Shown here: positions 33,521 through 59,503 of the stretch, piece after piece
Layout of the letters: every line of letters starts with the position of its first letter
Position numbering within the stretch: position 1 is the stretch's first letter
Source of the DNA: Candidatus Hydrothermales bacterium
GTDB taxonomy: Bacteria; Hydrothermota; Hydrothermia; Hydrothermales; JAJRUZ01
Assembly (NCBI GenBank): GCA_039630575.1
Contig: JBCNUW010000002.1
Location: 64,001 to 128,000, forward strand
Length of the DNA: 64,000 nt
Direction: 5' to 3'
Program-made: the position numbers and the translations under genes
Notes under the pieces: model-generated
The model's input: the letters and a program-made list of their open reading frames with translations, nothing else
The model's database searches: none
Told to the model about the DNA's origin: nothing

Positions 33521-33640
<120 letters not shown>

Positions 33641-44232: not shown

Positions 44233-45447
44233 TTAATCTATGATATCTGTTATTACTCCTGCACCAACTGTTTTTCCGCCTTCTCTTATAGCAAACCGAA
44301 GTTCCTTCTCCATTGCAACAGGGTACATAAGCTCAACCTCAAGATTAACATGATCACCAGGCATAACCATTTCTCTCCCTTCTGGAAGTTTTATTGAACC
44401 TGTGACATCTGTTGTTCTAAAATAAAATTGAGGCTTATAACCTGTAAAGAAAGGAGTATGTCTTCCTCCTTCCTCTTTTGTAAGAACATAAACCTGTGCC
44501 CTAAATTTTGTGTGGGGTGTAATAGTGTTGGGTTTTGCAAGAACCATTCCTCTTTCAACCTCGTCCTTACCTATTCCTCTTAAAAGAATACCCACATTAT
44601 CTCCTGCTCTTGCCTCATCAAGTACCTTTCTAAACATTTCAACAGATGTAGCTACGGTTTTTCGAGTGGGTCCAAAACCAACAATCTCTACCTCATCTCC
44701 AGGCTTTAAAGTTCCTCTTTCAACTCTTCCTGTTACTACTGTTCCTCTACCAGTAATTGAGAAAACATCTTCAATAGCCATTAAAAAGGGTCTATCTATT
44801 TCTCTTATAGGATCTGGAATATAATTATCCATTGCATCTATTAACTCCCAAATTTTACCACAATGTTCACATTCCCTCTTACCACATCCACACCTCATTG
44901 CATTTAAAGCACTACCTCTTATAACAGGAACCTCATTTCCTGGAAACTCGTATTTTTTCAAAAGATCTCTCACCTCTTCTTCAACAAGATCTACTATCTC
45001 AGGATCATCTACTGCATCTACCTTGTTAATAAATACAACTATATAAGGCACGTTTACCTGTCTTGCCAAAAGAACATGTTCTCTTGTCTGCGGCATAACT
45101 GAATCAACAGCTGAAACTACCAAAATAGAACCATCCATTTGAGCAGCACCTGTTATCATGTTCTTTATATAGTCATGATGACCAGGACAATCGATATGGG
45201 CATAATGTCTTTTCTCTGACTCATACTCTACATGAGCAAGATTAACGGTTAAAATCTTAGTTTCATCCCTTCTAAAAAGCTTAACATCAGCCTTTGCTAC
45301 CTGCTCATACTCCTGCTCAACAGCAAGACCATGCTTGGAAAGTACTTTTGTAATAGCAGAAGTCAAAGTAGTCTTACCATGGTCAATGTGACCTATCGTA
45401 CCCACATTAACATGCGTCTTCTTTCTTTCAAATTTAGGTTTACTCAT
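44233..45447 (-). CDS. tuf: Elongation factor Tu
   Basis: MSKPKFER start at 45447; [17 protein letters not shown] and FAIREGG. Confidence 0.97.
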
Positions 45448-45467: not shown

Positions 45468-45480
45468 GGGATTTGAACCC
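45468..45480 (-). promoter_or_regulatory. T-loop-like leader motif GGGTTCAAATCCC upstream of tuf
   Basis: Core ends 21 nt before the tuf ATG; recurs upstream of rpsL, mdh and 59470. Confidence 0.6.
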
Positions 45481-45532
45481 ATTGGGTCCTTTCAAAATAA
45501 TTTTAAAATTTTAAAATAATAATTTAATTATT

Positions 45533-47581
45533 TTAATATAAAAATTCTTTTTTTTCAAGTTTAGCTTCTCTAAATGAACTAACCTTCATCCAAATTCCTG
45601 CCTTTCCTTTTGTGTGTGATCTTAAAACAGTAACATATCCAAAAGTATTTTTAAGGGGCATCTCAGCAACTATTTTTATAATGTCAAAACCTTGTAAAAT
45701 ATCCTTTTCTATTATTTCTGCTTCTCGCTGCATGAGATCCTGAATCACATTCCCGATAAATTCGTGTGGCACAGTTATCTCTAAATAAGAATAGGGTTCA
45801 AGTAATACGGGTTCCGAAGTTTTTATCAATTCTTTTCCAGCCTCATGTATTGCTAATCTCAAACCTAATGGAGTTGTTCTTTCTATATTATATACTCTTT
45901 TAAGAATCATTTTTACATCTATTAACGGGTAACCTGCTATTACACCAAAATCAAGAAGCTCTTTCATAGAGCTATAAGCCACTTCTTTCAACTCTCCTTC
46001 TAAATTCAAGTTTTCATCTATCAAAATTTCGTTTCTCATAGAGCTTCTTATTGGTTCAACTTTTAATAGTACTTTACCGTACTGTTCCTCTCCACCTATA
46101 TTTTTCTTGATTTCTTTTATAATTTCTCCACTTATACTTATACTCTCCCTATAATGAACCTGAGGTTTTAATGCTCTAAAATCTAATTTATGGTCTCTTT
46201 TTAACCTATCCAATATAATCTCAAGATGAAGCTCTCCCATTCCTGATATTATAATTTGACCGGTTTCCTCGTCAATTTTTAAATTAAAGGTTGGATCCTC
46301 TTCTACCATCCATTTTAATCTTTCCTCTATTTTTTTGAAATCTTTTGAAGAAATTGGCTCTATAGCCTGTGAAACTACGGGTTCAGGAAAAAGCATCTCT
46401 TCATATAAAATTGAGTGTTCATGTGAACAAATAGTGTCTCCAGTCTTTATTTCTTTTGGACCTACTATTCCAACTATTTCACCACATATAGCTTCCCTTA
46501 TTGCGTTTTTTTTATTTGCATGAAGTCTGTAGAGACGTTGAATTCTTGTAACTTCATTTGTTCTTGGATTATATATCTTCTCCCCTTGAGAAATTTTTCC
46601 TGAATATATTCTTACATAACACAACTTACCCATATCTTCAAAAATTTGAACCTTAAAAACAACTCCACTAAAATGGTCATTTGGATCAGGATTTCTAAAA
46701 ATTTCATTTCTAGTTAAAGGATCTATCCCTCTTATTTTTCCTCTATCAATTGGAGATGGCAAATATTCACAGATTGCATCTAAAAGTGGTTGAATACCTT
46801 TGTTTTTTAAGGCTGAACCAATCAAAACTGGTAAAAATCTTTTCTCTAAAACTCCCTTTCTTATCGCATTGTTAACTTTAAAAGAGTTTACAAAGCCCTT
46901 TTCATAATATTCATCTGCAATACTCTCATCTATTTCCGAAAGAGTTATAATCATATCTTCATAATAATTTTTAGCATCTTCCTTTAGACTATCTATCGGT
47001 AAAAAAGAATATTCGATTCCTAATTCATCTTTATCCCAGAGTATTTTTTTATTTTCAACAAAGTGAAAAACACCTAAAAATTGAGTTTCCAAACCAACTG
47101 GCCATTCAAGTAAAAGAGGTTTAATTTTAAATTTTTTTTCAATTTGATTCAAAACTTTTAAGTGGTCAGCACCCTGTCTATCCATTTTATTTATGAAAGC
47201 TATTCTCGGTACATTAAACTTTTCAGCTTGTCTCCATATTGTCTCAGATTGTGGTTCAACTCCCTCTACTGCTGAAAAGATTATCACAAGACCGTCAAGA
47301 ATTCTCATAGACCTTTCAACCTCTACTGTAAAATCTACATGTCCAGGTGTATCAACAATGTGTATTAGGTAATTTTTCCATTCGCAAAAAGTTGCAGCAG
47401 CCTGAATTGTAATTCCTCTCTCTTTCTCCTGAATCATATAGTCCATTGTGGCTGTACCCTCATCCACCTCACCCATTCTATGTATCCTATGAGTATAAAA
47501 AAGAATCCTCTCAGTAGTTGTAGTTTTACCTGCATCTATATGAGCAGCAAAACCGATATTACGTATTTTACTTATGTCCAT
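45533..47581 (-). CDS. fusA: Elongation factor G (divergent domain IV)
   Basis: AHIDAGKT, RGITI, DTPGH, NKMD and GMGELHLE; str operon position. Confidence 0.93.
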   Translation of the reverse strand: MDISKIRNIGFAAHIDAGKTTTTERILFYTHRIHRMGEVDEGTATMDYMIQEKERGITIQAAATFCEWKNYLIHIVDTPGHVDFTVEVERSMRILDGLVIIFSAVEGVEPQSETIWRQAEKFNVPRIAFINKMDRQGADHLKVLNQIEKKFKIKPLLLEWPVGLETQFLGVFHFVENKKILWDKDELGIEYSFLPIDSLKEDAKNYYEDMIITLSEIDESIADEYYEKGFVNSFKVNNAIRKGVLEKRFLPVLIGSALKNKGIQPLLDAICEYLPSPIDRGKIRGIDPLTRNEIFRNPDPNDHFSGVVFKVQIFEDMGKLCYVRIYSGKISQGEKIYNPRTNEVTRIQRLYRLHANKKNAIREAICGEIVGIVGPKEIKTGDTICSHEHSILYEEMLFPEPVVSQAIEPISSKDFKKIEERLKWMVEEDPTFNLKIDEETGQIIISGMGELHLEIILDRLKRDHKLDFRALKPQVHYRESISISGEIIKEIKKNIGGEEQYGKVLLKVEPIRSSMRNEILIDENLNLEGELKEVAYSSMKELLDFGVIAGYPLIDVKMILKRVYNIERTTPLGLRLAIHEAGKELIKTSEPVLLEPYSYLEITVPHEFIGNVIQDLMQREAEIIEKDILQGFDIIKIVAEMPLKNTFGYVTVLRSHTKGKAGIWMKVSSFREAKLEKKEFLY

Positions 47582-47649
47582 TTGGCCAATTTTTGGAATT
47601 TAATTTTAAAAAAATTAACTTTTTCTTTTAAAAAAAAATTTTATACTTT

Positions 47650-48117
47650 TTACCATCTAAAGTGTGCAAAGGCTCTGTTTGCCTCTGCCATTTTGTGGGT
47701 ATTTTCTCTTATCTTAACTGCTCCGCCTTCATTATTTGCAGCACTTATTAACTCCTTTGCCAACTTCTCTATCATTCCTCTTTCTCCTCTCTCTCGCGCT
47801 GATTTTATAATCCATTTTATAGCAAGAGAAACTTGCCTTTTCGGTCTTACCTCAACTGGCACCTGATAGGTAGCTCCTCCAACTCTCCTCGGTCTCACCT
47901 CAAGAGTAGGCTTTACATTCTCTATTGCTTTTTCAAAAACTTTTAATGGATCTTCACCTGTAAGATCTTGAATTCTCTTCATTGCATTATAAAATATTTT
48001 CATCGCAATACTTTTTTTACCATCCCACATCAAGTTGTTAATAAACTTCATAACAAGGGGTGAATTATAAATAGGATCTGTTGGTATTTTTCTTTCAGGT
48101 GCTCTTCTTCTTCTCAT
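47650..48117 (-). CDS. rpsG: 30S ribosomal protein S7
   Basis: [11 protein letters not shown] and [13 protein letters not shown]. Confidence 0.97.
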
Positions 48118-48122
48118 ATTTT

Positions 48123-48503
48123 TTAACCCTCCTTCTTTTTCCTTTTAGTACCATAAAGACTTCTTGAACTTGCCCTATTTGCCACACCTGCACAATCATA
48201 AACTCCTCTAACTATATGATACTTTACTCCAGGTAAATCTTTTACTCTCCCTCCTCTAACAAGAACGACTGAGTGTTCTTGAAGGTTGTGCCCTTCTCCC
48301 GGTATGTAGGCAATCACCTCTCTACCATTCGAAAGTCTCACTTTAGCTACCTTCCTTAAAGCTGAGTTTGGTTTTTTGGGGCTAGTTGTATATACACGTA
48401 TACAAACTCCTCTTTTTTGTGGACATGATTCAAGAGCAATACTTTTAGATTTTTTTCTCTTCTTTTTTCTTTTATGTCGTATAATTTGGTTTATAGTAGG
48501 CAT
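48123..48503 (-). CDS. rpsL: 30S ribosomal protein S12
   Basis: [16 protein letters not shown] and RVKDLPGV. Confidence 0.97.
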
Positions 48504-48532
48504 TAATTTTTTTAAAATGCTATTTTTATTAT

Positions 48533-48543
48533 GGATTTGAACC
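48533..48543 (-). promoter_or_regulatory. T-loop-like leader motif GGTTCAAATCC upstream of rpsL
   Basis: 29 nt before the ATG, downstream of TATAAT/TATATT boxes. Confidence 0.6.
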
Positions 48544-49017
48544 GAAATTTAATATAATTATAAAAGTTAAAAAGAAAAAAATCAAATAATTTTATAATTT
48601 TATAACATTTTAGACTGATTAAAATATTACTTTAAAGGTTCGTAATGTATAATTCCTTAAACATTTAAAACTTTTTTAAAGAACATGATAAATTAACATT
48701 CACAATCTTACTTTGTAATAAATAAACAAAAACAAATTTTTCCTAATATGAATCTACAGATTACTTTCTCAACTCTTACATAAAACTTTCTTTGGATTTA
48801 ATTAGATTATGATCATTAAAAACTATGATCTATTTTCATACAAAGTTTACAAGGTAACATCTTAAACTCATCTCATCTAACTTTTTTTACTTTCCTATCT
48901 TTGTCGGAGTTCTATCAGCGATTTTTACACTTCAGAGTTCGAATAAAATATCTAAAATAAGTAAGTTCCCTTTAACTTTTGACTTACATCATTCTTTTAT
49001 TATAAACATCAAAACAA

Positions 49018-49046
49018 TTGAAAATTCTGAAAATTTCATTTATAAT
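49018..49046 (+). promoter_or_regulatory. Sigma70-type promoter of the tRNA-Thr/tsaC/purM unit
   Basis: TTGAAA-17 bp-TATAAT. Confidence 0.75.
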
Positions 49047-49054
49047 AGAAAACT

Positions 49055-49127
49055 GCCCGCGTAGCTCAGGCGGTAGAGCACTTCCTTGGTAAGGAAGAGG
49101 CCGCCGGTTCGAGTCCGGCCGCGGGCT
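49055..49127 (+). tRNA. tRNA-Thr(GGT), CCA not encoded
   Basis: Acceptor stem GCCCGCG/CGCGGGC, D arm GCTC/GAGC, anticodon arm CTTCC-TTGGTAA-GGAAG, T arm GCCGG-TTCGAGT-CCGGC. Confidence 0.97.
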
Positions 49128-49140
49128 TTTAAATTAAAAA

Positions 49141-50226
49141 TTGGAACTGAAAACTCCCAAGAAAAGCTTTAGAAAAGCTCTTGAAGTACTTAAAAAAGGA
49201 GGAGTTATAGCTATACCAACTGACACAGTTTCAGGACTTGTAACACCATATTGGTCTCAAGAGGGAGTTAAAAGAATCTTTTCTATTAAAAAAAGAGAAA
49301 GTGAAAAAACTCTTGGTCTTTTTATCTCTCAATCAAAAGAACTTAGACTCTTTACAAAAAACATAACAGAAACAAGAAAAAGATTGATACATAACTTGTG
49401 GCCAGGATCTATATCTCTTTTATTTAAAGCAAAAGAAAATTTACCTGAATATATTGTCCATAGAGAAAAAAAAACAGTATCTGTTAGAATCCCAAATCAT
49501 CCTGTTCCACTTTCCCTTTGCAGTTTAGCAGGACCTCTTGTACAAACTTCAGTTAATATCTCTGGTCATAAAGAAATAAATGATTATGAAGAGATTGAAA
49601 AAAAATTTGGTAAATATGTTGATTTTGTTTATCCTCAAAACTCTTATGGAAATTCTGCCTCAACAATTCTTGACGTATCCAAATATCCCTTTTTGTTATT
49701 ACGAAAAGGACCTATAGGTATAACTCAGATTGAAAGTTTGCTTTTAAAAAAAATAAAAATTTCAAAATCCATCAAAACAAACATCCTATTTGTTTGCAGT
49801 GGAAACACATGTAGATCTCCAATGGCTATGGGTATAATGTATTCACTTTTAAAACAAAATCTAAGGGATTTGGTAAATATTAAATCAGCAGGAGTTGACA
49901 CAATAGATGGACTTTTAATTGCTGAAAATACACTTAAAGTACTTGAGAAGGTATACAACTTAGATCTCAGTTACTATAGAACTAGGAAACTAAAAAAAGA
50001 TGATCTTGAATGGGCAGACTTCATTTATGTTATGGAAAAAAAACACTTAAGAGAAATTCAAAAAATGGGATTTTATGAAAAAGCAAAACTGTTAAACCTC
50101 ATAGATGGATTTAAAGATATACCTGACCCATTCGGTAAGGACTATAGCTACTATCTTTATGTATCAAAACTAATTGAAAAAAATATAAAATTGATTGTTA
50201 AAGAAATAGAGTATAGATACTCATGA
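49141..50226 (+). CDS. tsaC: TsaC/Sua5 threonylcarbamoyl-AMP synthase fused to a low-molecular-weight protein phosphatase
   Basis: IPTDTV.GL, KKR, VRIPNH and TSVN.SG, then FVCSGNTCRSPMA and DIPDPFG. Confidence 0.88.
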   Translation: MELKTPKKSFRKALEVLKKGGVIAIPTDTVSGLVTPYWSQEGVKRIFSIKKRESEKTLGLFISQSKELRLFTKNITETRKRLIHNLWPGSISLLFKAKENLPEYIVHREKKTVSVRIPNHPVPLSLCSLAGPLVQTSVNISGHKEINDYEEIEKKFGKYVDFVYPQNSYGNSASTILDVSKYPFLLLRKGPIGITQIESLLLKKIKISKSIKTNILFVCSGNTCRSPMAMGIMYSLLKQNLRDLVNIKSAGVDTIDGLLIAENTLKVLEKVYNLDLSYYRTRKLKKDDLEWADFIYVMEKKHLREIQKMGFYEKAKLLNLIDGFKDIPDPFGKDYSYYLYVSKLIEKNIKLIVKEIEYRYS

Positions 50227-51188
50227 GGTATAAAGAAGCTGGGGTAGATCTTAAAAAAGCCGAAAGTGTTTCAAAAATTTTTAAAATAATAACAAAACAA
50301 AAGGAAAGATTTTCAGGTATATTTGATCTTGGAGACTATTTTGTTGCTGCTACATGTGATGGAGTAGGTACTAAAACTCAAGTGGCAAGAATTGCCCGTA
50401 AATTTGAAGTTCTTGGTGAAGATATAGTGAATCACTCGGTAAATGATCTTTTATGTCAAGGTGCAAAACCTATTTTTTTCCTAGATTATATTGCTTCATC
50501 AAGCCTTGATTTGAGAGTTGTAAGAAAAATAGCAAAAGGAATATTAAAAGCCCTTAGAGAGAACGGAAATATAGCACTTTTAGGTGGAGAAACTGCAGAA
50601 ATGCCAGACATATATAATAAAAACGAGTGGGACATAGTTGGTTTTTGTGTTGGGCTTTTAAAAAAAGAGAATCTATTACCAAAAAAAATCAAAAAGGGAG
50701 ATTTACTTTTAGGCTTACCATCAAATGGACTTCATACAAATGGGTACTCACTTGCACGTAAAGTTCTTTTAAAAAAATATGATTTAAATAAAAAATTTGA
50801 AGGAAAAACACTTAAAAGTCTTTTACTTAAGCCACATAAAAGTTATTTCAAGATACTTTATCCTCTTATAGAAAAAAAACTTATAAAGGGTTTAGCTCAT
50901 ATAACTGGAGGTGGTATAGAAGGAAATCTAAAGAGAATTTTGCCAAATAGCTTAGGTTTTGATATAGATATAAGAGATGTAGAAAAACCCATAATTTTTG
51001 AGATAATTCAAAAAGAAGGAAATGTTCCTTATGATGAAATGCTAAAGGTATTCAATTTAGGAATAGGAATGATTGTAGTTATAGATGTAAAGGAATTAGA
51101 AAATATAAAAAATTTTTTGATAAAAAAAGGGGAAAAATTTTACATAATTGGTGAAATAACAAAAGGGAGAAAAAGAGTTATATTTTGA
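50223..51188 (+). CDS. purM: Phosphoribosylformylglycinamidine cyclo-ligase
   Basis: YKEAGVD, DGVGTK, GGETAEMP, SNGLHTNGYSL and HITGGG. Confidence 0.96.
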   Translation: MRYKEAGVDLKKAESVSKIFKIITKQKERFSGIFDLGDYFVAATCDGVGTKTQVARIARKFEVLGEDIVNHSVNDLLCQGAKPIFFLDYIASSSLDLRVVRKIAKGILKALRENGNIALLGGETAEMPDIYNKNEWDIVGFCVGLLKKENLLPKKIKKGDLLLGLPSNGLHTNGYSLARKVLLKKYDLNKKFEGKTLKSLLLKPHKSYFKILYPLIEKKLIKGLAHITGGGIEGNLKRILPNSLGFDIDIRDVEKPIIFEIIQKEGNVPYDEMLKVFNLGIGMIVVIDVKELENIKNFLIKKGEKFYIIGEITKGRKRVIF

Positions 51189-51212
51189 GAATTATAAAAA
51201 AGGAGGAAAAAA

Positions 51213-53636
51213 ATGACTGAGAGGCTGATTAATGCACCTATAGAAGAGGAAATGTCAACAAGTTATATCGACTATGCGATGAGTGTAATTGTAGGTAGAG
51301 CTCTTCCTGATGTGAGAGATGGATTAAAACCTGTTCACAGAAGAATTTTATACTCAATGTACGAATCAGGTCTTTTACCAACAAAACCGTTCAAAAAAAG
51401 CGCAACAGTAGTTGGTGATGTACTTGGTAAATTTCATCCCCATGGGGATATGGCTGTTTACGATGCTCTTGTAAGAATGGCACAAGACTTCTCACTTAGA
51501 TATCCACTGATTGAAGGTCAGGGAAATTTCGGTTCTATTGATGGAGATCCTCCAGCAGCATATAGATACACTGAAGTAAGGCTTTCAAAGATAGCTCTGG
51601 AAATGCTTAAAGATTTAGATAAAAACACTGTTGATTTTGTGCCAAATTTCGATGGGAGGTTAAAAGAACCTGTTGTTTTACCATCACTTTTACCAAACTT
51701 GCTTGTAAATGGCTCAACAGGAATAGCTGTAGGAATGTCAACTAATATACCACCCCATAACTTATCTGAAACCGTTGATGCACTTATATATTTAATCGAC
51801 AACCCAGATTGTAAAGACGAAGATCTATTCGAAATTATAAAAGGACCCGACTTTCCTACAGGAGGTTTGATATTAGGTAAAAAGGGGATACATGATTACT
51901 TTAAGATTGGAAGGGGACAAATAGTAATTAGAGGTAAATACTATATTGAAGAAAAGGGCAGAAAGAAAATTATATTTACTGAAATTCCTTATCTTGTAAA
52001 CAAAGCAAGCTTACTTGAAAGAATTGCAGATCTTATAAGAGATAAAAAAATAGAAGGTATACAGGATTTAAGGGATGAATCAGATAGAGATGGTTTAAGA
52101 ATTGTAATTGAACTTAAAAAGAACATTTCTGAGAAACTTATCTTAAATCAACTTTTTAAATACACACAGCTTCAGGATAGATTTAATGTAATTATGTTGA
52201 GCCTTGTTGAAAATGAACCAAAAGTTTTATCTTTAAGAGAAATTTTAAACTACTATCTTAGACACAGAGAGGAGGTTACAAGAAGGAAAACAGAATTTTT
52301 ACTTAAGAAAGCTCAGGAAAGAGCCCATATTTTAGATGGTCTTAAAGTTGCTTTAAAAAACATCGATGAAGTTATCAAAATAATTAAACACTCAAAAGAT
52401 CCAAAAGAAGCAGGTGAAAAGTTGAGAAAAGTTTATAAACTTACAGAATTACAGACTCAGGCAATATTAGAAATGAGACTACAAACTCTTACAAAACTCG
52501 AAATTTCAAAAATTGAGGAAGAGTATGAGAAAATAATTAAGGATATTCAGAAGTATAAAAGAATTTTAGAGGAAAGAAAAATTCTCTTTGAGGAAATAAA
52601 AAAAGAATTAATTGAACTAAAGGAAAAACACGGAGATAAAAGAAAAACAGAGATCTTAGATCAGGAACCAGAGGAAATTGACATCGAAAGTTTAATCAAA
52701 AAAGAAAAAATTCTTATTTTACTTTCAAAAAATGGTTATATAAAAAGGATACAAGGTTCATATTTAAAAACAAAGTCAAGGGGAACTCAAGGTCAAAAAG
52801 GAGTTCTGTTAGATGAGGATGACTTTCCGGAGGATGTTTTTTATTCTTTTTCCCATGATTATGTGCTTTTTGTATCAAATAAAGGAAAAGTTTACTCTTT
52901 AAAAGCCTATGAAATTCCTGAGAGTGGGTTAAGAGGTAAGGGAAAACCTGTAAATACAATTCTTAATTTACCAGATGGAGAGAAAATTGTCGATATGATC
53001 CCAATATCAGAATTCAAAAAGGGTGTTTATCTTTTTCTTATAACAAGAAAAGGTATAATTAAAAAAACTGACATTGAACTTTTTAAAAATGCTGGAAAAA
53101 GAGGTATCACAGGTCAAATCCTAAAGGAAAAAGATGAGACAATAAAAGGTTTACTTGTAACAGATGAAGATGAAGTTATTCTCTTAAAGGAAAACGGTCT
53201 TGCATCGAGAATAATATCAAAAGCAGTAAGACCCATGGGAAGGTCGAGTTATGGAATAATAGGAATAAAAACCAGCGATGCCGAATGTATATCAGGAGCT
53301 GTAATAAAGGAAAATACCACCATTCTTGTTGTAACAGAAAAGGGTTACGGTAAAAGATTTAAACCAGAGGAAATTCCAGCAAAAGGAAGAGGTGCTAAGG
53401 GTGTAATTGTACAAAAGGTAAATGAAAAAACTGGAAAAGCTATTTGGTTAAAAGCCTTTGATGATAAAGATCATCTTGTATTGCTAACAAGTTCATCAAA
53501 ACTATTAAGACAAAAAGTAGAAGAAATTCCTTTAATTTCAAGAGCAACAAGAGGTGTAAGGCTTATAAAAGTAGAGAAGGAAGATAAGGTTGTTGGTTGT
53601 GCAAAAATTCCTTATGAGGAGGAAATGGATGTTTAA
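51213..53636 (+). CDS. gyrA: DNA gyrase subunit A
   Basis: [29 protein letters not shown] and AAYRYTE; beta-pinwheel CTD. Confidence 0.93.
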
Positions 53637-54246
53637 CATAATTACTTTTTTTCTATTATCGATTAGCCCAATTAGAGGTGCTCTTTTATCTTTAATTGTT
53701 CCTGGTCTTGGACTTAGGCAAATGGGCGAAGATAGGTTGTTTTTAAGTATGGTAGCTGGAGAATTGACGCTATTTTCTTTCTACATTTATGATTTTAAAA
53801 CTAAAGGAGAAATAAGAGAAAGTTACAAGAAATTTGCCTATGAAAATGCTTCAGCTTTCCCTGGAACCGATGATGAAAGGTATTGGAGTGCTGTTGAAAA
53901 TTATTATAGTTATGAATTCTATTACGAATATCTTTTAAGAGAAGCAAGATCTTTGTATCCTGATGAACCTTTAAGGTGGGAAAATTATGCTAATGCCAAT
54001 TCTGTTGCATACAAATGGGCTTGGAAAGATACAACTTCATGGGATGCATTTCTGCATAAAAGAGAAAAAGAAAGAAGAATAGAATCGAGAATGAAAATTC
54101 TTCAGGGATTTGTAATTACCTACCACTTATTTTCTGCGATATACACTTTTGTCTATATTAAGAAAAAGAAAATAAACTTTCAAATAGAGGGAGAAATCGA
54201 GCCATCACAAGATAAGGCCTACCTAAAATTTACTTTCAAGTTCTAA
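53629..54246 (+). CDS. Hypothetical exported/membrane protein
   Basis: Start moved to ATG 53629 (SD GGAGG); A.LSL.VPGLG motif. Confidence 0.7.
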
Positions 54247-54250
54247 AGAT

Positions 54251-54796
54251 TTGTATTACATAAAAAGGGAAGAATGGTTAAAAAAAAGTATAACAGAAAG
54301 GATAAAGAATGTTAATATAAAACCTATTGTTATCATTCACCATACAGCAACACCAAAAAAGGAATATCAGGGGGATATCAATTATTTAGATAGGATTCAC
54401 AGAGAGAAAGGTTTCATAATGATCGGTTATCATTTTATTATAGCTCCTGATGGTAAAGTATTTGAAGGAAGAAAGATTAACGAGGAGGGAGCTCATACAA
54501 AGAGGTTTAACAGCTTTTTAGGAATTGCATTAATTGGAAACTTTGAGGAAGAGGAAATGGAAAAAAGGCAGTTATTTTCCCTATTAAATTTTATGAGTTA
54601 TTTAGAAAAGATTTTTTTTATAAATAAATTTTCTTTTCACTTTATGCTGAATGAAAAAACTTTATGTGGAAAAAAAATTTTTGACAAGTTAGTGAAAAAT
54701 AGAAATAAAAGAGTGTTTAAATTTCCAGATGATTTGTTTTATAATTTAATAGGTTCAAATCCATTTACAGAAGATTTTAGTAAAAGGAGGGACTAA
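54251..54796 (+). CDS. N-acetylmuramoyl-L-alanine amidase (Amidase_2/PGRP-like)
   Basis: IIHHTA, IGYHFII..DG.VFEGR, GAHT and GIALIGNF. Confidence 0.88.
   Translation: MYYIKREEWLKKSITERIKNVNIKPIVIIHHTATPKKEYQGDINYLDRIHREKGFIMIGYHFIIAPDGKVFEGRKINEEGAHTKRFNSFLGIALIGNFEEEEMEKRQLFSLLNFMSYLEKIFFINKFSFHFMLNEKTLCGKKIFDKLVKNRNKRVFKFPDDLFYNLIGSNPFTEDFSKRRD
54752..54762 (+). promoter_or_regulatory. T-loop-like leader motif GGTTCAAATCC upstream of mdh
   Basis: 6 nt after TATAAT (54740-54745) and 35 nt before the mdh ATG; lies within the amidase 3' end. Confidence 0.55.
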
Positions 54797-54797
54797 T

Positions 54798-55733
54798 ATG
54801 AAGGAAAAAGTATTCATAATAGGAGCAGGCTATGTTGGAGCTGAGTGTGCAAATGATTTAGCACTTAAGGACTTCTGTGATATAGTTTTGATTGACATTC
54901 TTGAGGGGATCCCTCAGGGTAAATCTCTTGATATGACCCATTCAAACCCTATCAGGTATGTATCACCAAATATAAGGGGTCAAAATAGTTACGATGGAAT
55001 AGAAGAAGCAAAAGTAGTTGTTATAACAGCAGGAGTTCCAAGAAAGCCCGGAATGACAAGAGAAGAATTACTTGATATCAATTTTAATATTGTTAAAAGT
55101 GTTACAGAGGAAATAAAAAAAAGAAATAAAAAAGCAATATTAATAGTAGTTACAAATCCACTTGATGCAATGACCTACGCAGCTTATAGAATTTCTGGGT
55201 TTGAAAGGGAAAGAGTGATAGGAATGGCTGGTGTTCTTGATTCAACAAGGTTTAGAGCTTTCATTGCTATGGAACTTGGAGTTGCCTATGAAGATGTTTC
55301 TGCAATAACACTTGGGACACATGGTGATTTAATGGTTCCTCTACCAAGGTATGCAACAGTAGGAGGAATACCTGTGAGTCATTTAATACCTAAAGAAAAA
55401 TTGGATTCAATCGTTGATAGAACAAGAAAAGCTGGAACTGAAATTGTATCTCTTTTAAAAACAGGTAGTGCTTATTATGGTCCTGGAACCTCAACAGCTA
55501 TAATGGTTGAATCAATAATCAAAGATAAAAAAAGAGTACTTTCAGCATCAGTTCTTTTAAAAGGAGAATATGGTATTAATGATATTTTTGTTGGAGTTCC
55601 TGTAATTTTAGGAGAAAAAGGAGTTGAAAAGGTTATTGAAATGAAACTTGAACCAGAGGAACTTGAAGCTCTTAAAAAATCTGCAGAACATGTTAAAAAA
55701 ATGCAGGAAGAAATTGATGCTAAATTGAAATAG
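54798..55733 (+). CDS. mdh: Malate dehydrogenase (LDH-like)
   Basis: IGAGYVG, TAGVPRKPGMTREEL, NPLD, GMAGVLDSTR and HGD.MVP. Confidence 0.95.
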   Translation: MKEKVFIIGAGYVGAECANDLALKDFCDIVLIDILEGIPQGKSLDMTHSNPIRYVSPNIRGQNSYDGIEEAKVVVITAGVPRKPGMTREELLDINFNIVKSVTEEIKKRNKKAILIVVTNPLDAMTYAAYRISGFERERVIGMAGVLDSTRFRAFIAMELGVAYEDVSAITLGTHGDLMVPLPRYATVGGIPVSHLIPKEKLDSIVDRTRKAGTEIVSLLKTGSAYYGPGTSTAIMVESIIKDKKRVLSASVLLKGEYGINDIFVGVPVILGEKGVEKVIEMKLEPEELEALKKSAEHVKKMQEEIDAKLK

Positions 55734-55837
55734 CTTTAAAAACTTAAAAAGGGGGTAAATTAAATTTTCAGCTAAAATCTAGAAGATTAACTTTTTTATA
55801 AGCATTCTTGAATTTATCTTATATAATTAATTTCTGC

Positions 55838-56014
55838 CTATTTAAACTTAAAGAGAAGTCCAAAAGGTATTAGCACCAGATAACCTAAAACAAGAAATAT
55901 TACCGAAAATGTTTTATCTCCAAACCAGAGAAATATAAATCCTATTAAGGCAGAGATTATACCTAAAATGATAAGAATGTAATTTTCTTTTTTATAAGGT
56001 AATGTATTTTTCAT
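55838..56014 (-). CDS. Small two-TM protein, DUF3098-like (58 aa; below the ORF-track cutoff)
   Basis: MKNTLPYKKENYILIILGIISALIGFIFLWFGDKTFSVIFLVLGYLVLIPFGLLFKFK. Confidence 0.75.
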   Translation of the reverse strand: MKNTLPYKKENYILIILGIISALIGFIFLWFGDKTFSVIFLVLGYLVLIPFGLLFKFK

Positions 56015-56046
56015 TTATTTATTTTAAGCAAAAAATAGTTAATTTA

Positions 56047-57672
56047 TCAAAATTCAATAGGTTCAAATTTTTTTCCTTTAATTTTATAAAACTTTATATT
56101 TTCTATACTTTTTCCAAAGAGGTAAAATTTGAAAGATCCTTTAAAATATGTTAAATTTTTTAAAAAATTTATTAAAGCGAATGATCCTGTTATGTTTTTT
56201 TCAAGGGTATAATTTAAAATGCTTCCAATATCGTAGCCAATATAGGCAGTTTCACTTGGGTAATCACCATATTTTGATTTAAATTCAAGAATAAACTTTT
56301 CAGATACCGAATTATCCCATATTCCGGCACTGGCAAAAATTACCCTTTCTTCAACATATCTATTAGATTTGATGGCAAAATCTTCTGTTGTAAACTTTCC
56401 AGTTGTCAATATTTTTGACTTTAATCCCTTAAAAACAATCTGAGAAGAAAGAGAGAGAAGTGACTCTTCTGTTCCTGATGGGAAAACAATAACATCAGGT
56501 CCAAGTGTATCCTGAAAAAAATTAATAATTTGATCAATTTTACTCTGAAAATCGAGTGAATCAATTGAAAAAAAAAGATAAAAGACTTTATTCCTTTTCT
56601 CAAATAAGTCTATTAATAAAGAAGTAATACTCTCCCCTTCTTCAGTAATGGGCAAAAGAGCACATATTTTATTTATATTGTTAGGAATAATATACCTTTC
56701 TATAATCGCTTTTATCTCAAGATAAAGTGAATTTGAAAGAGTTATTATATTTTCACCGTATTCACAGGCTCTTATATAAGAAAGTGCAGGAACTATAAAT
56801 ACTTTATCCCTTTTTTTTGCAAAATAAGGAAGAGCCAAATAAAAACTTTTGCTCAAAAGAGGCCCTATCAGAATCTTAAAATCATAATTATAACCAATAT
56901 GATCTTCGAGTAGTTTATATGTATATAATGGATCCTCTCTTGTATCAAAAACATTATAGTTTTTGTATTTAAAGGATAGTTCAAAACCTCTTAAAAATTC
57001 TTTTCCCAATAAACTGTCTGGTCCAGATAGGGGAAGATATATAAAAATTTCTTTTAATGTTCTCGACTTAAAAAAAGGATCCAATCTTTTTTTTGTGTAA
57101 ATTTCTTCAATTTCTTTAGTTTTTTCATGTTCAGGAACCTCTTCTTTCAAAATTTCAAAAATTTCTTCTTGAGCCTTTACATCTCCCTCTTGTCTTGCCT
57201 TTTCAAAGGCTATAAAAAGGATATTTGGATAAATTTCAAGATCTTTAAGCTTACTAATATTTTTTAATATTTCTCTGAGGGACAATTTTTTCGAAAGTTC
57301 AAGGATTTTATTCTCAGCTTCCTTAAAATAAGGAGAATCTCTAAATTTTAAAATAGCTAAATAACTTTCGAAGGCTCTCACTAAAAAATTAATTTTTTCA
57401 TAACTTTTTGCAAGCATATATAGAACTTGCACTCTATACTCGCTCTCATGGTAATTACTAAGGAATATATTAGAATAAACAATTACAGAATCACTTTTTT
57501 CAAGAGAATATAAAACATAGATAAAAAGATAATCAATCTTTTCACTCTTTTCACCTTTTCTAATCAAATTTCTTATTTCTTTTTCTGCTTCTTTCATTCT
57601 ATTTGCCTTGATCAAATCAATAATTTTAAACTCACTTTGATTTAAAAGTAATAACAATAAAAAAGGTATCAT
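56047..57672 (-). CDS. TPR plus periplasmic binding-fold protein (LpoA/LppC-like)
   Basis: TPR-like N-terminus; LPLSG..LG.EF.RGF, IGPLLS and F...YG.YP...AY.GYD. Confidence 0.75.
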   Translation of the reverse strand: MIPFLLLLLLNQSEFKIIDLIKANRMKEAEKEIRNLIRKGEKSEKIDYLFIYVLYSLEKSDSVIVYSNIFLSNYHESEYRVQVLYMLAKSYEKINFLVRAFESYLAILKFRDSPYFKEAENKILELSKKLSLREILKNISKLKDLEIYPNILFIAFEKARQEGDVKAQEEIFEILKEEVPEHEKTKEIEEIYTKKRLDPFFKSRTLKEIFIYLPLSGPDSLLGKEFLRGFELSFKYKNYNVFDTREDPLYTYKLLEDHIGYNYDFKILIGPLLSKSFYLALPYFAKKRDKVFIVPALSYIRACEYGENIITLSNSLYLEIKAIIERYIIPNNINKICALLPITEEGESITSLLIDLFEKRNKVFYLFFSIDSLDFQSKIDQIINFFQDTLGPDVIVFPSGTEESLLSLSSQIVFKGLKSKILTTGKFTTEDFAIKSNRYVEERVIFASAGIWDNSVSEKFILEFKSKYGDYPSETAYIGYDIGSILNYTLEKNITGSFALINFLKNLTYFKGSFKFYLFGKSIENIKFYKIKGKKFEPIEF

Positions 57673-57679
57673 TTAAATT

Positions 57680-57719
57680 AAAAGCCCCTCCCAAGAAGAA
57701 ATAAAGGGAGGGGCCTTTT
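57680..57719 (-). terminator. Intrinsic terminator hairpin after the T9SS cargo gene
   Basis: GCCCCTCCC/GGGAGGGGC 9-bp stem (57684-57714) flanked by A and T runs. Confidence 0.75.
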
Positions 57720-57745
57720 ATAAATCTCTAAACTTCTGCTATTTT

Positions 57746-59470
57746 CTATTCAGTAACAACAAGTTTTAAATTACCCTGGATATCTCCCTTATATTTCAAG
57801 AAGTATATTCCAGATTTGAGGTTAGAAACCTTTATTTCGTTATTTCCTTCTTTAACGGATACGGTTTTAGATGTAATTCTCTTTCCTGATACATCAAAAA
57901 TATCAAATACCATTTTTCCATTTAAAGGTGATACAAATCTGATAGCTCCTTTATCAAAAACATTTCCATTAAAGGTTAGCTTGTTCAAAACTAATTTATC
58001 CTTTGAGCTTTCGAAAATACTCGTAACTGGAATATAACCTGTTAAAATATAAGTAGGTACTGTTCCGCCAAGTGCATAAGTGTTATAATGAATATCAAGT
58101 CCCGCATTTGCACCATCCCATGCTCTTGGAACATTGAAGAGAAGCCATAATTTATAATCATTTGAAGGAGTAAATACATGCTTTATTGTGTGAACTTTAT
58201 GTTCAATCTTATCATCTGTAGGTTGATTTGCCTCGTCTCTTGTAATGTTATATGGCGCAGACCAAGTAGCTCCACCATCAAGTGAATATTTTACATAGAC
58301 ATCAGTCCACCCATACCTACGATTAGGAACATAATCAATTGTATGGTATGCAACATAAGTAACGAAGAGTATGTTGCGAACATGATCAATTGTAAGTTCA
58401 ATATTTGCAAAAAATGTTAAATCATCAGGGTCTATAATTGTATAGGTTGCTGTAGGTGTAACAAGATAAGCACCATTCCCAGAGACAAATGTATCAGTCC
58501 CAAAAACTATCGGATTTGTAAAGTAACATGTAGTTGTCAAAAGTGCCATAGGTGTTGTTGAATTAAGAAGGGCAAAATCCCAGTAATTTACATACCAAAG
58601 ATAATCAACAATATAATCTATTCCTTGAAATCTAAAAGTATCAACTGGGACATTAAAATAAAGGGGAATACTTGTCCATGTAGCTCCATCGTCATTAGAT
58701 ACTTTAACAGTATCTGGTCCTACAAGAGCTGCAAGTGTCCCACCCAAATAATCCATTAGCCATACATCTCCAGGGTGGTTTGGGAAAAGTGTAGCTGGAG
58801 GGTCAGGATCAATAAAAGCAAGTCTCCACCACCAATGAGTGAAGTAGTTATTATCTTGACCTACAAGAAAATTAACAAAATTTCCCATATCGTTTGAGGC
58901 ATTTCCAAAACTCCTATATCCTACAAATCCAGGAGTCTGAATGAAGTAGGTATAAATATTTCCTTGTGGTAAAGCACCATCAGATGGAACTGTAGAAATA
59001 GCACCTTCATAAGGTGTTCTAACTGTAGAGTATGTTAGAATAAAAGTGTCACTGTTACCCATCCATGGACCTACATTCGGATATCTTCCGGCTCCATCTA
59101 TATTGTATGGCCATATTCTTGTCCAAGTGTTCCCACCATCTTGAGAAAAAACAAGAGCTAAACGTCCTGTTCCAGGATAAGCAGGGTTATCAGATAATCT
59201 TCTATAAGTGAAAAATACACAGGATTGATCAGGTGATGTATTTATTGGTTTTGGTGCTGTATACAAAGTTGAATACTGATTGGGCATAGTATCTATATAA
59301 GCAATAGGTATTGTAGGATACGTCGGAAGTGCGGAAGGATAGATATCTGAAGTATTTTTAAAATCCTCCCGATCAATTATTAAATGATCCTTTACAATAG
59401 GTCTTATGGTTCCTGCAAACAGAAATCCTACAAGAAAAACAGTCAGTAGTACTTTTTTATTTTTACTCAT
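57746..59470 (-). CDS. Secreted BNR/Asp-box beta-propeller protein with T9SS-type CTD
   Basis: Signal peptide; SQDGGNTW, SNDDGATW and SLDGGATW; IFDVSGKRI...LKSGIYFLK. Confidence 0.82.
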   Translation of the reverse strand: MSKNKKVLLTVFLVGFLFAGTIRPIVKDHLIIDREDFKNTSDIYPSALPTYPTIPIAYIDTMPNQYSTLYTAPKPINTSPDQSCVFFTYRRLSDNPAYPGTGRLALVFSQDGGNTWTRIWPYNIDGAGRYPNVGPWMGNSDTFILTYSTVRTPYEGAISTVPSDGALPQGNIYTYFIQTPGFVGYRSFGNASNDMGNFVNFLVGQDNNYFTHWWWRLAFIDPDPPATLFPNHPGDVWLMDYLGGTLAALVGPDTVKVSNDDGATWTSIPLYFNVPVDTFRFQGIDYIVDYLWYVNYWDFALLNSTTPMALLTTTCYFTNPIVFGTDTFVSGNGAYLVTPTATYTIIDPDDLTFFANIELTIDHVRNILFVTYVAYHTIDYVPNRRYGWTDVYVKYSLDGGATWSAPYNITRDEANQPTDDKIEHKVHTIKHVFTPSNDYKLWLLFNVPRAWDGANAGLDIHYNTYALGGTVPTYILTGYIPVTSIFESSKDKLVLNKLTFNGNVFDKGAIRFVSPLNGKMVFDIFDVSGKRITSKTVSVKEGNNEIKVSNLKSGIYFLKYKGDIQGNLKLVVTE

Positions 59471-59490
59471 TTAAAACCTCCTTTTTTTTA

Positions 59491-59503
59491 GGGAATTGAA
59501 CCC
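59491..59503 (-). promoter_or_regulatory. T-loop-like leader motif GGGTTCAATTCCC upstream of the T9SS cargo gene
   Basis: Between TATAAT and SD AGGAGG; core ends 21 nt before ATG 59470. Confidence 0.6.

Follow-up and report, generated by a model that had tools for sequence, protein, structure and literature searches.

What is a piece of transfer RNA doing in front of protein-coding genes? The question is raised by a 64,000-nucleotide (nt) stretch of DNA from a Candidatus Hydrothermales bacterium (contig JBCNUW010000002.1, positions 64,001 to 128,000; this whole stretch is called the window below), in which a word resembling the T-arm loop of tRNA, GGTTCAAWTCC, stands in the leaders of four unrelated genes: tuf, rpsL, mdh, and a gene for a cargo protein of the type IX secretion system (T9SS). 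An original prediction, made from the window alone, took the word for a lineage-wide cis element on abundant mRNAs and offered three guesses at its function: a stabilizing hairpin, a processing signal, or a site of translational control. The analysis described here indicates that the element is real and restricted to one family. Judged from sequence comparison, it is probably a signal that recruits the 30S ribosomal subunit for the start of translation, either replacing the Shine-Dalgarno (SD) sequence or working beside it.

Linkage to start codons rather than promoters

Inspection of the window places the four words at the predicted positions and strands, all in sense orientation and all 21 to 35 nt from the ATG (Table 1), and NCBIfam profiles support the four gene identities. 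The predicted absence of an SD before tuf and rpsL also stands; mdh and the T9SS cargo gene do have one. The window contains six matches to GGTTCRANTCC where shuffled sequence gives 0.16, and these are the four leader sites, the T-arm of a tRNA-Thr gene, and one antisense match within fusA. ARAGORN and Rfam recognize in the window just tRNA-Thr and a 5S rRNA, with no cloverleaf around the leader T-arms and no family match that overlaps any of the four sites.

The same association holds throughout the source genome (1.89 Mb, 30% GC; G000). Here GGTTCRANTCC occurs 136 times, 42 of them inside tRNA genes, and 68 of the 93 copies outside tRNA and tmRNA lie 16-35 nt before the ATG of a long open reading frame (ORF), against a background of 1.3%. 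This bears out the enrichment at start codons that the four sites had suggested. For the relaxed word GGTTNNANNCC, linkage to a start is seen in 123 of 295 copies in sense orientation versus 11 of 295 in antisense, and shuffling of the leaders predicts 0.44 marked genes where 133 of 1479 are observed, a count that includes copies adjacent to tRNA genes. The working set used below consists of 134 hairpin genes among about 1775 ORFs (called with a simple script; spacer window 16-36 nt), or about 8% of genes. Further short genes beyond this set also carry the element, including rpmH and a 30-amino-acid (aa) basic protein, among others. The latter is a Lys/Arg-rich ORF (MPCGRKRK...) on the minus strand of contig C20, 22 nt after a hairpin, which we take to resemble small ribosomal proteins of the bS22/AURKAIP1 type.

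When no window is preset, there is nearly nothing at spacings of 8-16 nt and an abrupt rise at 17 nt. The element thus sits 17-36 nt upstream of the start codon, on the sense strand, before both first and internal cistrons. The spacer is 86% A/U, shows no reading-frame preference, and is shorter in leaders without an SD than in those with one (median 21 nt versus 26.5 nt; p=4e-11).

The original prediction also placed each site downstream of a -10-like box. Such a box does lie upstream of all four, at 6 to 20 nt, but across the genome the spacing to -10-like hexamers varies widely, and many copies elsewhere have no promoter signal. For thirty-nine internal copies, the distance to the stop codon of an upstream gene with homology support is between -60 and +8 nt, and many follow that stop immediately; their promoter score, a crude consensus count, is 11.7, versus 11.6 for ordinary gene ends (p=0.86). 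The 38 copies in divergent regions score 14.6, and before first cistrons the probable transcription start is a few bases upstream of the element. Since the 39 operon-internal copies carry no promoter signal, the element is not merely a 5'-end feature.

A T-arm hairpin in mRNA

In tRNA numbering, the core of the element is a G52-G53/C61-C62 stem, usually extended by a third pair, that closes a strict 7-nt loop. U54, U55, and A58 are invariant within the loop, and the closing G53-C61 pair does not vary. When the strict word is changed singly at G52, G53, U54, U55, A58, C61, or C62, no start-linked copies are found for any of these changes; positions 56, 57, 59, and 60 tolerate change. In the relaxed context, start-linked copies number 7 of 304 for changes at U54 (2.9 expected) and 0 of 278 for changes at A58. 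Forms with 6- or 8-nt loops (a 10-mer and a 12-mer) are seldom start-linked (4 of 79 and 3 of 148).

The stem covaries. The third pair is Watson-Crick in 85 of the 134 source-genome copies versus 45.7 +/- 5.2 in shuffles, and in 32 of 38 copies versus 12.7 expected in a genome from another genus of the same family (G005); of six off-register pairing controls, five are flat and one is marginal (p=0.049). Within the core, the double change to A52-U62 is start-linked in 6 of 58 cases (0.6 expected), one of which precedes rplS, and the single change to G52-U62 is not enriched (1 of 34). Because both flanking and outer stem pairs covary, the element is an RNA hairpin with a 7-nt T-loop. Its conserved bases are those that build the T-loop of tRNA, as described in the accessible part of PMC7912444, and its anatomy, as read from these sequences, is that of a stand-alone tRNA T-arm within mRNA.

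The hairpin is small. Its stem has 2-4 bp in 108 of the 134 copies and at least 5 bp in 26, with a median of 3 bp and a longest case of 10 bp. Nearest-neighbour rules give a median stability of -2.0 kcal/mol at 37 C and +1.75 kcal/mol at 70 C; we infer that the source organism is thermophilic. Whole leaders fold no more stably than their shuffles (z -0.7 to +0.3). All seven 16S genes compared contain GGTTCAATTCG, one base off a common leader variant, which is probably a coincidence because families without the hairpin share it.

These properties bear on the idea that the word acts in DNA, as an operator for a transcription factor, a promoter element, or a scar of integration or repeat insertion. 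The word is near-palindromic, and it resembles tRNA-derived att cores and the eukaryotic B-box. However, the strand bias (123 versus 11) and the covarying stem pairs contradict a DNA site, and the spacing follows the start codon instead of -10 boxes, with flanks that carry no tRNA sequence. Neither a fixed spacing to -10/-35 elements, as for a σ70 site, nor orientation-independent occurrence, as for an operator, was found among the copies. A DNA-level role is thus hardly credible.

Distribution across the phylum

The element is confined to one WOR-3 family. All six genomes of this family hold 67-149 copies of GGTTCAAWTCC, and the 245 other genomes of the phylum hold at most 31. Together with the covarying stem, this upholds the proposal that a cis RNA element built like a T-loop marks conserved, probably abundant mRNAs throughout the lineage. 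Orthologous leaders also keep it, as the original prediction would have it: across genera, in 374 kb of G005, the hairpin is present in 15 of 16, and the sole exception is a 44% match. There is turnover as well, in that 15 of 25 G005 hairpin genes in the 374-kb tiles, and 4 of 9 in short G005 pieces, have their source-genome orthologue in the working set. In a genome of the sister family (G006), just 16 of 296 copies are start-linked, and most of these resemble tRNA ends.

A GTDB-wide scan for the A/U-flanked hairpin form before an ATG returned at least 114 stretches, and among the 80 matches listed no second lineage with the element was seen. The listed matches include five WOR-3 loci with an intergenic hairpin before an ORF, as well as Halanaerobium and Sphaerochaetaceae clusters that by eye resemble tRNA 3' ends; 11 of 13 genomes checked from the scan have just 7-23 copies. 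Also among the listed matches are two Clostridia in which GGTTCAATTCC, with A/U flanks, lies 23 nt upstream of a shared membrane-protein gene that also has an SD; this is one orthologous site.

Exchange with the Shine-Dalgarno sequence

An indication of function comes from orthologues in the sister family. For 99 of the 134 hairpin genes, the orthologous start could be placed in G006. None of these 99 G006 leaders has the hairpin, and 84 have an SD, versus 29 of their counterparts in the source genome. Mean pairing with the anti-SD is -11.3 kcal/mol in the G006 orthologues versus -3.7 kcal/mol in the hairpin leaders. For control genes (n=954) the corresponding SD counts are 364 in G006 and 257 in the source genome. 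Among SD-less genes with high-confidence starts, the G006 orthologue is SD-led for 48 of 55 hairpin genes versus 122 of 413 others (p=1e-16). Because the hairpin marks mostly genes whose sister-family orthologues have a strong SD, we read it as a likely initiation signal.

Individual genes show both exchange and coexistence. infC has the hairpin without an SD in 5/5 family genomes and an SD without the hairpin in 5/5 sister-family genomes. rpsA has both signals in 6/6 family genomes, and rpsU has both in the source genome and in four readable relatives. At rpsU (loci L366-L370) the hairpin was gained a few bases past the upstream stop, and the strong SD was retained. About 27% of source-genome genes still carry an SD, so the anti-SD is probably not sequestered. 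An A is preferred at position -3 (69% versus 51%).

The exchange also bears on whether the hairpin might instead be a landmark for mRNA stability or processing, in which a protein-bound or modified T-loop shields the downstream cistron, or directs cleavage by RNase Y just upstream, and the raised mRNA level then lets the SD decay. The place of the hairpin in first cistrons, close behind the likely transcription start, would suit such a landmark, as would its preference for conserved genes (median identity to G006 of 58% versus 47%) and the presence of RNase Y in 5/5 genomes of the order examined (G000, G001, G005, G006, G007), and so would the presence of TruB, TrmI, and TrmFO. However, the 39 internal copies without a promoter signal would need cleavage first, searches of the same five genomes yielded no RNase J or RNase E/G, and the predicted hairpin is weak. 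Nor would a landmark have reason for a narrow upper limit on its distance to the AUG, and the gene-by-gene exchange with the SD is explained more directly at initiation. We consider a landmark of this kind unlikely. Of the three functions guessed at originally, translational control is now favoured, and the 5'-end stabilizer is weakened by the internal copies and by the RNases not found.

Translational control could also take the form of an operator, with a CsrA-like logic in which a diffusible protein switches about 8% of genes with the growth state, in place of constitutive recruitment of ribosomes. The marked genes do encode ribosomal proteins, translation factors, chaperones, and enzymes of central metabolism (most of them named from their N-terminal sequences), CsrA itself was not found in five genomes, and the leader of a family-restricted basic protein, described below, has rare hairpin variants in 3/4 genomes. 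Yet genes of the opposite regime are marked as well, including a ferritin-like protein, a hibernation factor, and secreted proteins; a repressor site would leave the loss of the SD unexplained; the hairpin lies outside the ribosome footprint, not overlapping it; and nothing directly links the basic protein to the hairpin. A global regulator of this kind is improbable.

tRNA enzymes

The original prediction pointed to the enzymes that recognize the T-loop in tRNA. TruB and TrmI are single-copy in the family, with no paralogue, as they also are in relatives that lack the element; both families have TrmFO and a gene of the RlmD/TrmA type, and an RNase P RNA of type A is present. RNase P recognizes a T-arm stacked on an acceptor stem, together about 12 bp. 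In the leaders the longest stem is 10 bp, the median is 3 bp, and no acceptor-stem mimic was found. The minimal substrate of TruB, TrmA, and TrmFO, according to the accessible part of PMC7912444, is the loop 53-GUUYRANYC-61 on a 5-bp stem. The loop consensus is matched by 93 of the 134 copies, and loop and stem together by 12. Recognition by TruB, TrmFO, TrmI, or RNase P as the purpose of the element is weakened by these figures and by the missing acceptor stem.

Modification itself (pseudouridine 55, m5U54, m1A58) might nevertheless be the purpose, with the mark carrying the function. The enzymes are present, the 93 copies fit TruB, and TruB-type sites in bacterial mRNA are modified, as reported in the accessible part of PMC13236023. 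Against this, 41 of the 134 copies deviate from the consensus, among them conserved copies with U57 upstream of rpsU, and a stem of at least 5 bp is found in 26 copies, with the 12 noted above satisfying both requirements; TruB and TrmI are, moreover, no more numerous than in relatives that lack the element. We judge such a purpose very improbable, and some copies of the hairpin may still be modified.

tRNA-gene junctions and a possible origin

Real tRNA genes offer a possible origin. In the source genome, 30 tRNA genes have a long ORF starting within 120 nt, and for 20 of these the start lies 20-27 nt downstream of the T-arm, 19 without an SD; homology supports the start to within 5 residues in 17 of 19 checked. 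The gene after tRNA-Gly begins at 23 nt with no SD in the source genome, and the same gene in G006 begins at 35 nt with an SD. Within the window, the T-arm of tRNA-Thr lies 24 nt before the SD-less TTG start, at 49141, of a tsaC fusion gene, a geometry equal to that of the leader hairpins. This gene (49141-50226, plus strand), directly 3' of tRNA-Thr, joins TsaC/YrdC to a low-molecular-weight phosphatase domain. The commonest leader word, GGTTCAAATCC, is also the commonest T-arm of the source-genome tRNAs (20/47).

True T-arms at a matching distance before SD-less genes suggest co-option. We infer that the arm had its prototype at tRNA-gene junctions and was later spread by the family in isolated form. 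The hairpin would thus have been co-opted from real T-arms just upstream of genes, and in the leaders it would recruit the ribosome in place of, or beside, the SD. In its fullest form, the proposal is that the family has a second, structure-based ribosome-binding site: a T-arm lifted from tRNA, placed before about one in twelve genes, and read by a contact of the tRNA-elbow type within the 30S initiation complex (a remodelled S1, the N-terminal domain (NTD) of IF3, or a novel small protein of the ribosome that descends from an inactivated nuclease), with tRNA genes giving the same signal to the genes behind them. To this fuller proposal we give an even chance.

Candidate readers

As candidate readers we would name, in falling order of belief, S1 with a remodelled domain 3, the IF3-NTD, a family-restricted 80-aa basic protein, and bS21. 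In E. coli, domains 1-3 of S1 dock structured mRNAs that have a weak SD (PMC3858243, accessible part). Domain 3 is the most diverged domain of the S1 encoded here (0.47 between the family and its sister family, versus 0.61-0.67 for the other five domains). In the rpsA product of the whole order, domain 3 is without its conserved F, H, and W residues, and it has diverged further in the hairpin family.

Ahead of tRNA arrival, the IF3-NTD occupies the platform close to uS11, and it binds the elbow bases 55-57 (PMC5037330 and PMC9723500, accessible parts); by this position and this activity it is already equipped to bind a T-loop close to the mRNA exit. The family IF3 has some private residues. 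infC has an ATG start and an MGRK-type N-terminus in both families of the order, and several other families of the class apparently have a non-ATG start; the usual start-codon autoregulation of IF3 may have been lost in the order. bS21 has a family C-terminal extension of about 5 residues with a QEKLKK-type tail (8 of 10 extractions were readable). uS7, uS11, bS6, and bS18 are ordinary in comparison with G006, and bS18 also in comparison with 10 genomes.

The 80-aa protein (pI 12; source-genome contig C89, 21786-22028) is present in 4/6 family genomes and 0/25 others; of the two family genomes without it, the neighbouring gene runs off the contig end in one and was not found in the other. Homologues share 61-68% identity. 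The protein, whose predicted fold is confident, is a shortened relative of small PD-(D/E)XK-like proteins: a Lys-rich tail is joined to the C-terminal half of such a fold, and the PD and EVK motifs of the catalytic site are missing. Its leader includes a strong promoter. No clear match emerged from fold searches (best Foldseek E 0.08; best Z 6.9), a sequence search of the PDB gave nothing credible, and Atlas matches were below 0.9. Remote homologues resemble minimal PD-(D/E)XK nucleases in scattered hosts. Stand-alone proteins of 64-132 aa with a YE..A..GGPGxPD..GEVKxW motif, apparently minimal nucleases of this type, occur in archaea, bacteria of the candidate phyla radiation, and metagenomes. 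From its sequence features, the 80-aa protein looks like a lineage-specific ribosomal or nucleoid protein.

Several observations weigh against a role in initiation. The SD is kept in 36 of the 134 hairpin genes, and the majority of genes without an SD also lack the hairpin (the SD-less controls number 697). Three 16S genes of the family have an intact anti-SD, and comparison of 16S from three family genomes, three sister-family genomes, and one other found scattered substitutions and no family-specific insertion. The large-scale SD comparison uses one sister-family genome and our own gene and start calls. The 17-nt lower bound equally fits any bound structure that is kept outside the ribosome footprint. 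The spacing behind tRNA genes owes partly to tight gene packing, and the figure for G006, 9 of 23 (8 without an SD), does not differ significantly from 20 of 30 (p=0.057). No unambiguous family-specific reader was found among S1, IF3, bS21, the other ribosomal proteins, and the small basic protein: domain 3 of S1 is already diverged in the sister family, which is without the hairpin; IF3 has no family-wide change at the column that we take, from the E. coli sequence, to be the elbow-binding R25; and the 80-aa protein is one of many genes common to G000 and G005 and not found in G006 (21 in 374 kb). With these points included, recruitment of the 30S subunit remains the reading that we hold to be probable.

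Relation to known systems

The hairpin shares with the tRNA T-arm (RF00005) the invariant G53-C61 pair, U54, U55, A58, and the 7-nt loop. It differs in its short stem, its lack of a D-loop or acceptor stem, its tolerance at positions 56, 57, and 60, and its location in mRNA, with a defined spacing to the start codon. Viral tRNA-like structures and intergenic-region internal ribosome entry sites (IRES) mimic the anticodon arm or the whole L-shape within viral RNAs. Like these, the hairpin is a tRNA mimic within mRNA that likely engages the translation machinery; unlike them, it is a minimal T-arm and occurs in cellular bacterial mRNAs.

The known start signals of bacteria are linear (the SD and A-rich, Kozak-like contexts) or the mRNA is leaderless. 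The hairpin resembles the SD in being start-linked, one-stranded, and present before first and internal cistrons, on genes that have a strong SD in the sister family. However, the SD is a linear, G-rich stretch that pairs with the 3' end of 16S rRNA and lies 5-13 nt upstream, whereas the hairpin is structured and covarying, lies 17-36 nt upstream, and coexists with an intact anti-SD.

The tisB standby site is reportedly a structured leader of a comparable kind. In the S1-dependent leaders of E. coli rpsO and thrS, structure upstream of a weak or absent SD likewise aids docking of the 30S subunit (PMC3858243, accessible part). Such leaders and standby sites are gene-specific and unrelated in sequence, whereas the hairpin is one conserved motif of 11-13 nt. 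In Bacteroidetes, initiation is SD-independent throughout the lineage (PMC7797042, accessible part). The family described here similarly shows a lineage-wide move off the SD, A/U-rich leaders, an A at -3, and an rpsU that keeps a strong SD; unlike Bacteroidetes, it retains an SD on about 27% of genes and has a positive, structured signal. The mRNA targets of TRUB1 and TruB, as described in the accessible part of PMC13236023, are T-arm-like hairpins containing GUUC. These targets are scattered, with no fixed position, whereas in this family selection acts on position and lineage, and many copies depart from the consensus of the enzyme.

If the proposal is correct, replacement of the SD, gene by gene, by a 13-nt folded piece of tRNA would represent a novel way for cells to initiate translation and a natural IRES-like element of minimal size. 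It would illustrate how a lineage can rewire initiation with the anti-SD kept, and the adjacent tRNA genes would be a traceable origin. The hairpin is small, its invariant bases are known, and a natural compensatory variant exists, which makes the proposal directly testable; the element might also serve synthetic biology as an orthogonal translation signal. Even under the other explanations, this is a genome-wide T-arm element in mRNA of which, in agreement with the original prediction, no description was found in the literature searched, subscription journals and supplements lying outside its coverage. The accessible part of PMC10783764 does not mention WOR-3.

Features of the window

Table 1. 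T-arm words in the window and the genes that they precede
Feature	Position	Strand	Spacer to ATG (nt)	Remarks
T-arm hairpin GGGTTCAAATCCC before tuf	45468..45480	-	21	3-bp G-C stem, 7-nt T-loop; A/U spacer, no SD; operon-internal, ~50 nt past fusA stop
tuf (EF-Tu)	44233..45447	-		ATG at 45447
T-arm hairpin GGTTCAAATCC before rpsL	48533..48543	-	29	2-bp stem only; no SD
rpsL (uS12)	48123..48503	-		opens str operon
T-arm hairpin before mdh	54752..54762	+	35	spacer holds SD AAGGAGG
mdh (malate dehydrogenase)	54798..55733	+
T-arm hairpin GGGTTCAATTCCC before T9SS cargo gene	59491..59503	-	21	spacer holds SD AGGAGG
574-aa secreted protein, T9SS type A sorting domain	57746..59470	-		TIGR04183, 29.6 bits (cut-off 23)
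True T-arm of tRNA-Thr(GGT)	49106..49116	+		tRNA gene 49055-49127
Sixth GGTTCRANTCC match, antisense in fusA	47253..47263	+		treated as chance, outside the element

No 16S gene is assembled anywhere in the source genome; a 5S rRNA gene lies at 33523-33639 (+) of the window. The mdh hairpin falls within the 3' tail of a 181-aa ORF (54251-54796, +), of which residues 1-111 match a G006 protein. Since this match stops at residue 111, and the mdh hairpin lies with promoter-like boxes in the tail, the latter may represent read-through without a function.

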